Below, in pieces: positions 101 through 11,834 of a stretch of 11,834 nucleotides of DNA (position 1 is the first letter of the stretch; every line of letters starts with the position of its first letter). The notes beneath the pieces were generated by a model. The model saw only the letters and a list, made by a program, of their open reading frames with translations, ran no database searches and was not told the origin of the DNA. The stretch spans positions 1 through 11,834 of the forward strand of contig JBHLRQ010000066.1 in assembly GCA_048882385.1 (NCBI GenBank), written 5' to 3'. Made by a program: the position numbers and the translations under genes. Source of the DNA: Candidatus Thorarchaeota archaeon (GTDB lineage: Archaea; Asgardarchaeota; Thorarchaeia; Thorarchaeales; Thorarchaeaceae).

Positions 101-238
101 TTACTTGATGTAATAGTTTTTCACAAGCATGCCTCTGTGAAATACTCCACAGTCGCACTCAGCACATTCGTTTCTGAAATTCTCATGATCTTCACGAATA
201 TGACCACAAGTACATTGGTCTAATTTTCTCATACTCAT
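101..238 (-). CDS. 45-aa Cys/His-rich putative zinc-binding microprotein (MSMRKLDQCTCGHIREDHENFRNECAECDCGVFHRGMLVKNYYIK)
   Basis: Manual translation: ATG at 238 (alternative 232), TAA at 101-103. RBS GAGGTGA ends 4 nt before ATG 238 (10 nt before ATG 232). Motif C-x-C-G-H-x4-H-x6-C-x2-C-x-C-x2-F. The start overlaps the upstream ORF's stop (ATGA). Below the ORF-track length cut-off. Confidence 0.8.
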   Translation of the reverse strand: MSMRKLDQCTCGHIREDHENFRNECAECDCGVFHRGMLVKNYYIK

Positions 239-384
239 CTTGTCACCTCGTTCTTACTCTCTGTTTCAGATGATTTCTCAACCATCTGTTCATGAATCAT
301 CTTCAACAATCTGTGAGGCCCGTGTCCTTTTCTTACTCGGGCTCTATTGTATAGAGTCTTTGATGTGATTTTCATTTCTTCCAT
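235..384 (-). CDS. 49-aa hypothetical microprotein (MEEMKITSKTLYNRARVRKGHGPHRLLKMIHEQMVEKSSETESKNEVTR)
   Basis: Manual translation: ATG at 384 preceded by AGGA about 8 nt upstream. TGA at 235-237 overlaps the ATG of the Zn microprotein (ATGA coupling). Basic core RARVRKGHGPHR. Confidence 0.6.
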   Translation of the reverse strand: MEEMKITSKTLYNRARVRKGHGPHRLLKMIHEQMVEKSSETESKNEVTR

Positions 385-571: not shown

Positions 572-1396
572 TCAGAAGAAAGAATCCAAGGTTGATTGAG
601 ATGTTTCTGTAGCCTTTAGCATGCGTTCAAGCTTCGCCTGCTGCTTCGGATTTATCTTCTTCAGAAGAGAGAGCATTTGAAAGGCGTTAAGTGGGGCGTT
701 CCCAGCAAAGTGATTGTTAAAGTATCCTAACGTAGTAGCAACACTACTTGTGACTTTTTCTAAACGGTCGACCCAAGGCTCAAGCTCTTCGATAGAATAT
801 CGATAATTAAACCATGGATTTTCTCCATGACCATGCCAACGTATGTAGGAGAAGTCTGCGGTTATTCTAAGGTCGATGGGGAGTTTGGGTTCATCAACAA
901 TCACATGTGCAACACCATAATCTTCAAGCAAATTCCAGACTCTTTGAATTAACCATGATTCATCCCGGAATTCAATGGCATACCGATATGCTGGATCAAG
1001 AGTTGAAAAGAATTTTTCAATGTCACCGAATTTGGTTATGTTCCATGGTGGAAGTTGTATCAGAAGAACTTGTACACGACCGTGGAGTGGTTCAAGAAGG
1101 CGAAAATATTCCCTGAGTATGGAACCTCCCTCACCACTGATATCGAGTTTGGTGTCATGTGTGACTTTTTTTGGCATTTTTGCGGTGAAGAAAACATTCG
1201 AATCCAGACTACCAAGGTGCTTCACAAACTTTGGCTGCGGTAGAGAATAGAATGTTGAGTTTATCTCAGCGGTATAGAAATACTTGAGATATTGTTGAAG
1301 CAGAGAACCTCCTGATGAGTAAAAGATTCCCTTCCAGTCTTTATCATAAGACCATCCGCTAGTTCCAATATGAAGCCCTTTTCTCATCAGTCTCAT
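572..1396 (-). CDS. DUF72 (YecE-like, TIM-barrel) protein with C-terminal PCNA-interacting (PIP) motif
   Basis: Family motifs IGTSGWSY, EINSTFY, KMPKKVTH, QLPP, AIEFRDESW, YIRWHG and YFNNH…GNAP.NA. The C-terminus is QSTLDSFF. The start could be 1387. Confidence 0.92.
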   Translation of the reverse strand: MRLMRKGLHIGTSGWSYDKDWKGIFYSSGGSLLQQYLKYFYTAEINSTFYSLPQPKFVKHLGSLDSNVFFTAKMPKKVTHDTKLDISGEGGSILREYFRLLEPLHGRVQVLLIQLPPWNITKFGDIEKFFSTLDPAYRYAIEFRDESWLIQRVWNLLEDYGVAHVIVDEPKLPIDLRITADFSYIRWHGHGENPWFNYRYSIEELEPWVDRLEKVTSSVATTLGYFNNHFAGNAPLNAFQMLSLLKKINPKQQAKLERMLKATETSQSTLDSFF

Positions 1397-5900: not shown

Positions 5901-6680
5901 ATGGACGAAGAATGTGCAGTCAAAATTCTTGGAGCGCCTGAGGCACAGGTCGTTCAGACAAAAGAAATTGAAATGAAACAACCTCTATTGGTGTGTTGTT
6001 TCCCATCAGCTGGAGTTGTAGGTACAATTGCAGCTCAAGAAATGATTCAGCAGTTTGAGATGGAAGAGGTTGCACATGTCAGATCACGATATATGCCTTC
6101 AGCAGCTGTTTTTCAGGATGGTCGTTTACGTCATCCTTTCAGAGTTTATGGTAAGAAGGACAAGAACCTTCTTGTTGTGACAGCAGAACTACCAGTAGCC
6201 GATGAGGGGCTTTATGTTGTTAGTTCCACCCTTCTTGATTGGGGTGCGACAGTTGGAGTCAAGGAAACAGTAATCCTTGATGGTATTCCTGTGCAAGGGC
6301 TTCCTACTTCACGTAAAGTATTGTACGCAGCGGAGGAGGAAAAGATCAATGAACTTGCAAAGGATGAAACAATGGAGATTCTCAGTAAGGGAATAATTAC
6401 TGGAATTGCAGGTTCGATTCTATCGGAAACACTATGTAGAGAGATGGTTGGATTTGCACTGTTGACACCTGCAATTGCAATGGTTCCAGACCCTGCAGGT
6501 GCAGTTCAGTTACTTGAAGCACTAAATAGGTTATACAAAGTCGATGTAAATGTTACAGATCTAAAAGAAAGTGCAGCTGAAATCAAATCAAAGATGGAAG
6601 AGATGGCTCAGCAAGTAGAAGGGATGCGTAGACAACAACAAGGTGCGGGTAGACCGGGATACGAGAGAATGTATGCTTAG
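5901..6680 (+). CDS. PAC2-family proteasome assembly chaperone/activator (PbaA/PbaB-like) with C-terminal HbYX motif
   Basis: FPSAGVVGTIA, HPFRVY, LDGIP, GIITGIAG, PDPAGA and a helical tail ending M-Y-A. RBS GAGGT, and a TTAATA box at 5858-5863. Confidence 0.9.
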   Translation: MDEECAVKILGAPEAQVVQTKEIEMKQPLLVCCFPSAGVVGTIAAQEMIQQFEMEEVAHVRSRYMPSAAVFQDGRLRHPFRVYGKKDKNLLVVTAELPVADEGLYVVSSTLLDWGATVGVKETVILDGIPVQGLPTSRKVLYAAEEEKINELAKDETMEILSKGIITGIAGSILSETLCREMVGFALLTPAIAMVPDPAGAVQLLEALNRLYKVDVNVTDLKESAAEIKSKMEEMAQQVEGMRRQQQGAGRPGYERMYA

Positions 6681-10818: not shown

Positions 10819-11834
10819 TTGACCGATCAAGACATACTCAAAGAGGCTAGAAGTGCACTAAAAGAAGGGAACAAGGAAGTAGCTGGAAAATTACTTCTTG
10901 CCGCAGCAAGTAGATTGTCAGACAAAATGGAGTACAAAGAAGCAGCAAAAGTCTATGAAGAGGCTGCTGTTGTTTTCAGAGATGCATATGACGCATCTGA
11001 GAGTTTCAAGGCATTCGACAATGTCACCCTCATGCTAATTCGACTTCCCCAGGAAGAAAGCGTCTATCAGGAGATTGTACGAGTAAACAAAGAAGCAGCA
11101 AAGGTTGCTGAAGAGGCAACAGAATACAAGAGAGCAGCAGAATTCTATTTTCGTGCTCAGGACTTTGCTTCAGATGAGGAAAAAAGAGAGTTGAACATCA
11201 AAGCTGCTGATGCACTAGAGAACCTTGCTGATATCAGAGAGGAAGAAGAGGATTTTGCTGAAGCAGTCAGTCTTCTACGAAAAGTGAGCCGTTTGTATTA
11301 TACGGCTGGTGATGATGAACTCGGAGAGCGAATTAATGATCGGGCTGCTCGTCTTGCTCGTAGATGGGCAGATATTGCCAAAAACAACGGGGATTTTTTG
11401 TCGGCTGGAAATGCACTTGCTGAAGCTGCGCAGATAATGGACACTGGAGAATCAACAGAAGCCATGCGAATAATGATGGAAGCTGGAGAACTCTACGAGG
11501 CTGCAGAGCTTTTTGAAAAGGCAGGTAATATCTATGATGCCGCTCAAGAAGCTTACAAACTGCAGAGACTCACGTCAGCCAGAAATCAGGCCATGTCAAA
11601 AGCTGCTGAAGCCTATTTGAAGACACAAGGGTCAGCTGAAGCTGTGGCACCACTTCTTGTTAAAGGAGGAAACATGTTCCTTGAGATTAGTCGACCAATG
11701 AAGGCAAAGTGGGCATTCAAGCGCGGAAATGAGTTATTTGGAGAACTTGCAGAGAAAGCTAAAAGTCGTAATGATGTAGAGTCCGAGATGAAGTATTATA
11801 GATTCCAAGCAATGTGTCTGGAGAAGTGGGGAGC
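10819..11834 (+). CDS. Alpha-solenoid protein with alpha-SNAP/Sec17-like (TPR-related) helical repeats; 3' end truncated by the window
   Basis: Not in the ORF track. Frame +1 is open from TTG 10819 (in-frame TGA at 10804-10806 upstream) to the window end, 338 codons: MTDQDILKEARSALKEGNKEVAGKLLLAAASRLSDKMEYKEAAKVYEEAAVVFRDA…GDFLSAGNALAEAAQI…LFEKAGNIYDAAQEAYK…. Ala/Glu-rich with about 20-aa helix periodicity. Confidence 0.88.
   Translation, partial: MTDQDILKEARSALKEGNKEVAGKLLLAAASRLSDKMEYKEAAKVYEEAAVVFRDAYDASESFKAFDNVTLMLIRLPQEESVYQEIVRVNKEAAKVAEEATEYKRAAEFYFRAQDFASDEEKRELNIKAADALENLADIREEEEDFAEAVSLLRKVSRLYYTAGDDELGERINDRAARLARRWADIAKNNGDFLSAGNALAEAAQIMDTGESTEAMRIMMEAGELYEAAELFEKAGNIYDAAQEAYKLQRLTSARNQAMSKAAEAYLKTQGSAEAVAPLLVKGGNMFLEISRPMKAKWAFKRGNELFGELAEKAKSRNDVESEMKYYRFQAMCLEKWG

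Follow-up and report, generated by a model that had tools for sequence, protein, structure and literature searches.

The window analysed here, a stretch of 11,834 nucleotides from a Candidatus Thorarchaeota archaeon (GenBank assembly GCA_048882385.1, contig JBHLRQ010000066.1, forward strand), encodes a DUF72 (PF01904, YecE-like) protein that ends in a PCNA-interacting protein (PIP) box, QSTLDSFF. The initial annotation of the window had read this protein as a DNA repair or replication enzyme recruited by the sliding clamp, and looked for corroboration to archaeal C-termini, bacterial family members and a modelled complex with the PCNA of the organism. All three provided it computationally, through conservation of the motif in archaeal homologues, a switch to a β-clamp-type motif at the same place in a bacterial sister clade, and a complex model that scored far above its controls. 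We consider the protein to be probably a clamp-recruited DNA-processing enzyme, with a repair nuclease as the favoured form. The components of this reading differ in firmness: from sequence and modelling, binding of the clamp by DUF72 is highly likely; a clamp-dependent transaction on DNA is probable; and a phosphodiester-cleaving endonuclease in the strict sense is a tentative assignment that we hold with slightly less than even confidence.

The 274-residue product has the C-terminal sequence ...KATETSQSTLDSFF, in which residues 267–274 fit the pattern Q-x-x-[LIMV]-x-x-[FYW]-[FYW]. The interval 572..598 given for the PIP box in the initial annotation comprises the motif codons at 575–598 and the stop codon at 572–574. 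An AlphaFold2 model, built on 127 homologues and with a mean predicted local distance difference test (pLDDT) score of 95.9, consists of an eight-stranded barrel at residues 6–244 and a separate 30-residue tail at 245–274, which forms a helix at 250–271 and along which pLDDT drops from 80 to 63. Since the barrel ends at residue 244 and the Pfam domain at 242, the motif sits beyond the DUF72 core, as the annotation had also held.

The frequency of such C-termini was assessed in all six-frame open reading frames (ORFs) of at least 100 residues of the same genome (n = 4379), with shuffling of the last 40 residues as the control. The strict pattern Q..[LIMV]..[FYW][FYWLIM] was present within the last 12 residues of nine ORFs, against a shuffle mean of 4.03 (standard deviation 1.98). 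The exact form Q..L..FF at the very end was found in two ORFs, DUF72 and a 385-residue XPG/Fen1-family nuclease, against 0.05 in shuffles. Four of the nine strict carriers are PCNA clients, namely the PolD large subunit DP2 (EQTTLSDFFET), two XPG/Fen1-family nucleases (RQSTLSDFF and RQSTLEQWF) and a Y-family polymerase (EQACLTEFL). The four that remain besides these and DUF72 are short or unannotated ORFs, about as many as expected by chance. A looser one-aromatic pattern added a Hel308-type helicase and RNase HII. At their C-termini, known PCNA clients of this genome carry tails of the form Q-[ST]-T-L-x-x-[FW]-F. The DUF72 ending SQSTLDSFF agrees with this form and is almost identical to the endings of the two XPG/Fen1-family nucleases. 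The archaeal clients of this genome (Fen1, RNase HII, PolD DP2, the Y-family polymerase and Hel308) share with DUF72 a Q-x-x-L-x-x-aromatic motif at or near the C-terminus on a flexible tail; unlike in these proteins, the catalytic domain of DUF72 is a TIM barrel of its own family. Of separate interest, the 385-residue nuclease is the second of its family in the genome (C35:12852–14006, plus strand), and PIP-like C-termini also occur on an NrdR-like regulator (EQPTLFNYKK; C217:1111–1605, plus strand) and a DUF2797 protein (TQTGLLDFC; C84:6440–7387, minus strand).

It is through conservation in homologues that the DUF72 motif rises above chance. The Asgard set comprised the best 120 of 3531 homologues (59–92% identity; labelled rows from Thor-, Loki-, Odin- and Promethearchaeota), 110 of them full length. 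The pattern Q..[LIMV]..[FYW] was found no more than two residues from the C-terminus in all 110, against a mean of 0.57 after shuffling of the tails. In an alignment of 112 Asgard sequences, Q267 was invariant and conservation at L270 and F273 was at least 90%, whereas the three positions ahead of the glutamine varied freely. The usual form was Q-[TAS]-[ST]-L-[DE]-[DE]-F followed directly by the end of the chain (85/110). The annotation's Q-x-x-L-x-x-F-F accordingly describes the window protein exactly but not the conserved form, which is the single-phenylalanine Q-x-[ST]-L-[DE]-[DE]-F, with FF in a minority. A scan of species-representative genomes returned 80 loci, mainly from Thorarchaeota, of which 67 were complete short-tail forms; the printed tails, read by eye, contained the motif in 63, and the four exceptions ended in QTFLDDVW, QMTLDEHWD (two loci) and QTTLDDH. 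In the Bathyarchaeia/Bathyarchaeota clade, whose barrel is approximately 38% identical to that of the window protein, 105 of the best 120 rows of the search had the motif no more than two residues from the end (shuffle mean 0.65) and 114 had it within the last twelve residues, with KQSQLGSFF and QSKLGDFS as typical tails.

A library clustered at 50% identity gave 6190 hits, and one distinct set among the best 150 cluster representatives ended in Q-x-x-L-F. A search with one of its members yielded 90 bacterial rows ranking above the archaeal ones. In 74 of these, Q..[LM][FLW] lay at most one residue from the end, and in 69 it was exactly terminal (shuffle mean 0.66), with a tail logo of Q-[LGM]-[RSD]-L-[FL] and examples such as QLSLF, QMSLF, QGRLF and QLDLL. 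This clamp-type pattern was absent from all 110 Asgard and all 120 Bathyarchaeia sequences; the PIP pattern was met in five of the 90 bacterial rows, partly through overlap as in QRQMSLF. As background, the PIP and clamp-type patterns occur in 19 and 10, respectively, of the 4379 ORFs of the window genome. The canonical motifs are QxxLxxFF for PCNA and QLxLF for the bacterial β clamp (PMC11791011, cited here and below, like PMC3828134, from excerpts of the article), and the sister-clade tails fit the latter as far as sequence goes. The resemblance to bacterial β-clamp binders with QL[SD]LF-type ends therefore belongs to the bacterial sister clade, not to the window protein. Labelled members of this clade came from Latescibacteria, Zixibacteria, KSB1, Blastocatellia, Anaerolineae, Gemmatimonadales and Humisphaera.

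Phylogenetic trees were computed on the barrel only, each sequence being cut 20 residues after a conserved FNN landmark so that tails were excluded. For FastTree (143 rows), sequences shorter than 230 residues or without an FNN-type landmark were dropped; for a quick IQ-TREE run (103 rows), 14 of 42 tail-less rows were kept at random and 12 near-duplicates were removed. FastTree returned a group of 25 rows with the clamp motif in 20 (local support 99), a second of 53 rows made up of 31 PIP forms, 13 with a long C-terminal extension and nine others (support 91), and a third of 49 rows, 38 of which were tail-less. IQ-TREE returned a 20-row clade with 17 clamp-motif rows (Shimodaira–Hasegawa-like approximate likelihood-ratio test 99) as sister to a 44-row PIP/extension clade (82), and a further clade of 23 rows with tail-less and unclassified tails (88). 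Motif type hence follows clade, and the clade with PIP forms adjoins the one with clamp motifs, in trees that are unrooted and composed of related sequences. The motif classes were assigned by regular expression and are imperfect: a Zixibacteria row with a clamp-motif tail (P0301, ...QRQMSLF) was scored as PIP, and several tails classed as "other" are PIP-like without the glutamine or have the motif further from the end. Taken together, a PIP box in archaea and a clamp motif in bacterial relatives make it very probable that this subfamily works on DNA while tethered to the clamp.

The window genome (3.70 Mb in 256 contigs, 95.3% complete) encodes a single PCNA of 255 residues (contig C1). This protein, with 30 aligned Asgard PCNAs, was modelled together with DUF72 residues 243–274 and the corresponding Asgard alignment. 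The complex reached an ipSAE score of 0.69 (runs of 0.69, 0.70 and 0.68) against 0.17 for the best of three controls. Of 80 solved complexes, 58 attained the score mark, as did two of 110 mismatched pairs; this calibration is rough because our own alignments were used. The runs shared at least 83% of contacts, and partner pLDDT was at least 64. In the modelled interface, DUF72 residues 264–274 face PCNA residues 40, 43–47, 124, 126–128, 154, 200, 202, 226–227, 243 and 245–250, which we take to be the hydrophobic pocket, interdomain connector loop and C-terminal strand of the canonical PIP site. The model supports binding to PCNA without showing it. The linker at residues 250–262 lies outside this interface and is itself conserved, K255 being invariant and Q252, L256 and M259 at least 90% conserved across the 112 Asgard sequences.

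In an alignment of 127 diverse DUF72 members, E44 and R186 of the barrel were invariant, and K73, H80, Q114, E142, R144, N227, N228 and several aromatic residues were at least 90% conserved. The model places the conserved polar residues at the C-terminal ends of the strands. This arrangement agrees with the conserved groove described for the bacterial homologue TM1631 and its Tyr/His/Arg/Glu/Arg phosphate-binding patch; an endonuclease recognising unpaired nucleotides was proposed, and an endonuclease IV-like DNA-binding site was predicted in silico for the same protein (PMC3828134). In addition, an enrichment of DUF72 genes in the vicinity of polB2 was described for archaea and bacteria, and the DUF72 fold was called closely related to that of UVDE (PMC11791011). 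The annotation's description of DUF72 as a family of unassigned function consequently needs qualification by these two proposals. The searchable literature yielded no biochemical function for DUF72. The clamp-motif discussion in the excerpts of the latter paper concerns PolB2 and iRadA rather than DUF72, and the excerpts of neither paper mention a clamp motif in DUF72. No link of DUF72 or YecE to the clamp was found in the full-text literature either, with subscription journals and supplements outside the scope of the search, so the connection appears to be unreported. Separately, among the literature matches listed for YecE, the gene figures mostly as a prophage insertion site.

Crystal structures of DUF72 proteins have existed since 2004. 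A profile search of the Protein Data Bank matched DUF72 structures only, with TM1631 (1vpq) at E = 1.4e-67 and EF0366 (1vpy/1ztv) at E = 2e-39. Foldseek likewise matched the model to the DUF72 fold (E = 4e-19), and VIA-align gave Z = 27.5 for 1vpq (root-mean-square deviation [rmsd] 2.2, 235 residues aligned) and Z = 25.6 for 1vpy. TM1631 and EF0366 share family and fold with the window protein but are bacterial and tail-less or short-tailed, in contrast to its 30-residue tail with a PIP box; TM1631 has no tail beyond the barrel, since the profile match spans residues 11–272 of its 273-residue chain. Behind the DUF72 entries came a plateau of xylose-isomerase-like barrels, with MbnB at Z = 14.7, sugar epimerases at 13–14, endonuclease IV from Mycobacterium tuberculosis at 14.0 (5zhz; rmsd 3.3, 212 aligned), Thermotoga maritima at 12.0 (2x7w) and Escherichia coli at 11.9 (1qtw), and the African swine fever virus AP endonuclease at 13.6 (6khy). 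Endonuclease IV (Nfo, AP_endonuc_2) and UVDE resemble the eight-stranded DUF72 protein in being xylose-isomerase-like TIM barrels of similar size; they differ in lacking a sequence-family match, and the comparison, made by fold score, is not a claim of membership. In the window genome, five other genes match AP_endonuc_2 (PF01261), and no UvdE match was found in this assembly of 95.3% completeness.

From the fold, the conserved residues and the published proposals, a clamp-tethered DNA repair nuclease is taken to be the likeliest mechanism. The DUF72 enzyme would be tethered to the sliding clamp by its flexible C-terminal tail, the PIP box occupying the canonical site on the one PCNA that the organism encodes. 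This tether would bring the active site of the barrel to clamp-loaded DNA. The site itself would be the conserved Glu/Arg/His/Lys/Tyr cluster on the C-terminal barrel face, a putative counterpart of the TM1631 phosphate-binding patch, and the enzyme may cut or otherwise process a damaged or unusual nucleotide in the manner of endonuclease IV or UVDE, during replication-coupled or gap-filling repair. We infer physical binding, DNA as the substrate and nuclease chemistry, of which the chemistry is the weakest link.

Several observations weigh against this reading. As regards the motif, a single strict match is not significant on its own, given nine observed and about four in shuffles; most Asgard homologues have one aromatic residue, which is a weaker fit to the canonical PIP motif; and the sequences within each homologue set are related, so that the motif counts are not independent events. 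The assignment of the clades to domains rests on few labelled rows; when clusters were looked up, an organism name was attached to two of ten in one set and to one of ten in another. Seven bacterial rows were labelled, of which five had a clear clamp motif, the others being from Anaerolineae (PPQLRMA) and Humisphaera (RGELFG). Many PIP–PCNA complexes have been solved, so the pass of the complex model may show likeness instead of binding. Within the family, a PIP-type copy was present in just 21 of 55 sampled Asgard genomes, and many members are tail-less, TM1631 included. With respect to fold, endonuclease IV stands level with sugar epimerases, isomerases and MbnB (Z = 13–14.7), and the fold is hence compatible with an endonuclease IV-like nuclease but singles out none. 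UVDE was not among the best 50 rows of the structure search, which is no evidence that the folds differ. Pfam at E up to 0.001 returned DUF72 as the sole family, with no match to AP_endonuc_2 or UvdE (PF03851). As for genomic context, Pfam revealed no DNA-repair genes among the genes of the window, and no repair or replication genes adjoined DUF72 in 72 Thorarchaeota-type loci (the window and 71 others). The genes kept at these loci were glnA (63/72), a 105-residue ORF (58/72) and an aminotransferase (49/72), i.e. metabolic ones. With no repair genes nearby, the context gives no functional support, and the synteny probably reflects kinship only. Two lines were set aside on these grounds: fold search as a means of discriminating nucleases, since Foldseek and VIA-align do not separate them from sugar enzymes, and gene neighbourhood as functional evidence, which offered glnA, the 105-residue ORF, the aminotransferase and housekeeping genes.

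The tail could bind PCNA on an enzyme that is no nuclease, either one with another clamp-tethered activity, such as processing of the ring-opened sugar at abasic sites, removal of DNA or nucleotide modifications or action at RNA–DNA junctions, or on a non-catalytic regulator of PCNA. The tie between endonuclease IV and sugar epimerases or isomerases and the lack of a Pfam match to nuclease families are what such a protein would lead one to expect. A purely regulatory role is countered by the catalytic-looking cluster conserved in all clades, and the non-nuclease reading as a whole by the phosphate-binding patch and endonuclease IV-like DNA site predicted for TM1631 (PMC3828134) and by the association of DUF72 genes with polB2 (PMC11791011). 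We regard it as unlikely.

Less likely still is that the C-terminal motif serves another partner or an intramolecular role, such as barrel docking, oligomerisation or a degradation signal, and resembles clamp motifs by convergence. Short linear motifs are degenerate, with about four chance matches per genome, the helix preceding the motif is conserved too, and homodimers were proposed for TM1631 (PMC3828134). Nevertheless, the change to the β-clamp type coincides exactly with the bacterial sister clade and is seen in none of the archaeal sets, and a motif switch matched to the domain is hard to reconcile with an intramolecular role or with a partner shared between domains; moreover, the tail matches the client consensus of its own genome and the complex model uses the canonical site. 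Finally, an ordinary metabolic TIM-barrel enzyme of the sugar or phosphosugar isomerase kind, with the motif as a functionless accident of the lineage, is very improbable: metabolic neighbours (glnA and the aminotransferase) and the many sugar epimerases among the fold matches speak for it, but Q, L and F are kept in 110/110 Asgard and 105/120 Bathyarchaeia sequences compared with fewer than one expected from shuffled tails, a parallel clamp motif exists in the bacterial clade, and the synteny of close relatives is mostly kinship.

PF01904 was matched in nine of 14 control genomes, including those of E. coli, Bacillus subtilis, Deinococcus radiodurans, Sulfolobus acidocaldarius and Methanosarcina acetivorans. 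DUF72 was present in 57 of 61 sampled Asgard genomes and in every one of the 28 of high quality, the copy number often being two to five. A census of 99 DUF72 ORFs from 55 genomes, classed by regular expression, gave 24 PIP-type ORFs, two that were PIP-like without the glutamine, 14 with a C-terminal extension of about 130 residues, 32 tail-less, 22 other, and five cut or fragmentary. The 21 genomes with a PIP-type copy belong to six GTDB families, f1 (5/6), f4 (3/3), f8 (6/6), f11 (3/4), f16 (2/3) and f19 (2/2). The extended form was found in 14 genomes of six other GTDB families, and none of the 55 genomes held extended and PIP-type forms together. The extension has an invariant H-x-C-x12-C-x-H signature, and its residues 47–150 model well. 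Its best structural match was the SWIM protein ZSWIM8 (Z = 5.7, rmsd 3.5, 83 aligned), with the SWIM protein Shu2 at Z = 3.1; no Pfam family matched it at E up to 0.01, and on the model a SWIM-like nature is suggestive. Several extended forms contain a PIP-like remnant between barrel and extension (KTLFDFI, KTLMDFI or QTTLxG). We infer that the PIP-type and extended proteins are alternative versions of one orthologue.

On this basis, a broader proposal, which to us has about equal chances of being right or wrong, is that DUF72 represents an old, hitherto unrecognised clamp-dependent DNA repair family of archaea and bacteria. The C-terminal docking peptide of one subfamily would have been re-tuned to the clamp of the host, as PIP in Asgard archaea and Bathyarchaeia and as QLSLF-type motifs in several bacterial phyla, and elsewhere in archaea the same orthologue would instead have acquired a zinc module of SWIM-like type, preceded by a degenerate PIP remnant inside the chain, with recruitment passing to this module.

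If clamp recruitment is true, DUF72 would be a new client family of a well-known mechanism, adding to both the archaeal PCNA and the bacterial β-clamp networks. A docking tail that changes with the host clamp would be a clue to the workplace of the enzyme, namely clamp-loaded DNA, and would open this long-known DUF family to experiment. It would also provide independent support for the earlier in silico proposals of endonuclease IV- or UVDE-like activity. A suggested assay setting for DUF72 is the presence of PCNA or β clamp on primed or nicked DNA that contains lesions.

Extended DUF72 proteins of approximately 360–420 residues were recorded at L133–L142, L146, L148, L154 and L157 (other Asgard genomes) and at L113 and L115–L121 (Bathyarchaeota, Crenarchaeota and Asgardarchaeum records). 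In genomes with the extended form, a second DUF72 paralogue of approximately 305 residues, without a PIP tail and ending in ...YENVEEIIKE..., lies divergently adjacent to it in a conserved pair, as in L134:460–1377 (minus) beside L134:1426–2616 (plus), and also at L138, L139, L140, L142, L143, L157 and L209.

The coordinates of the DUF72 gene and its parts are compiled below. The family match was obtained at E = 2.3e-50 and 172.1 bits against a cut-off of 25.3, and covers residues 32–242 and profile positions 10–215 of 217. This is the only DUF72 copy found in a family search of the genome. The true start is probably the second methionine, M4 (ATG at base 1387), because the consensus of the homologue alignment opens with MRKGLHIG and the closest of the 3531 homologues (92% identity, labelled Candidatus Thorarchaeota) is 271 residues long.

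Coordinates of the DUF72 gene and its parts in the window
Feature	Positions	Strand	Remarks
DUF72 (PF01904, YecE-like) gene	572..1396	minus	274 codons and stop
TIM-barrel catalytic core (putative), residues 6–244	665..1381	minus	alignment, AlphaFold2 model, structure matches
Conserved helical linker, residues 250–262	611..649	minus	pattern Q-x-x-K-L-x-x-M; between barrel and PIP box
C-terminal PIP box QSTLDSFF (Q267, L270, F273, F274)	575..598	minus	last eight codons
Stop codon TGA	572..574	minus	immediately after the PIP box

The remaining genes of the window encode glutamine synthetase, an aminotransferase, a CDF transporter, a PAC2 protein, a methyltransferase, an amine oxidase, a POR-family protein (pyruvate ferredoxin/flavodoxin oxidoreductase), a GFO/IDH/MocA oxidoreductase and a SNAP-like repeat protein. 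The 105-residue ORF (1485–1802, plus) lies between glnA and DUF72 on the strand of glnA; besides the 58 of 72 loci in which blastp detected it, tblastn found it in 60 of 71. A Pfam search at E up to 0.01 gave no family for it, and it is probably a real, uncharacterised small protein tied to glnA in Thorarchaeota. Two small ORFs, 101–238 (minus) and 235–384 (minus), overlap by four bases 3' of DUF72 on the same strand. They encode 45 residues rich in Cys/His (CTCGH...CAECDC) and 49 residues, and are kept, at 47–70% identity, in four and five of the 71 Thorarchaeota-type loci. The PAC2-family protein (proteasome assembly chaperone 2-like, E = 1.2e-38; 5901–6680, plus) adjoins the CDF transporter. 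At the far end, a helical-repeat protein (10819–11832, plus) runs past the end of the window and has weak Pfam matches to eukaryote-type families, namely SNAP (soluble NSF attachment protein, E = 3.4e-9) and DOCK DHR-2 lobe A (E = 5.1e-7); it is possibly one of the eukaryotic-signature-like proteins of this Asgard archaeon.

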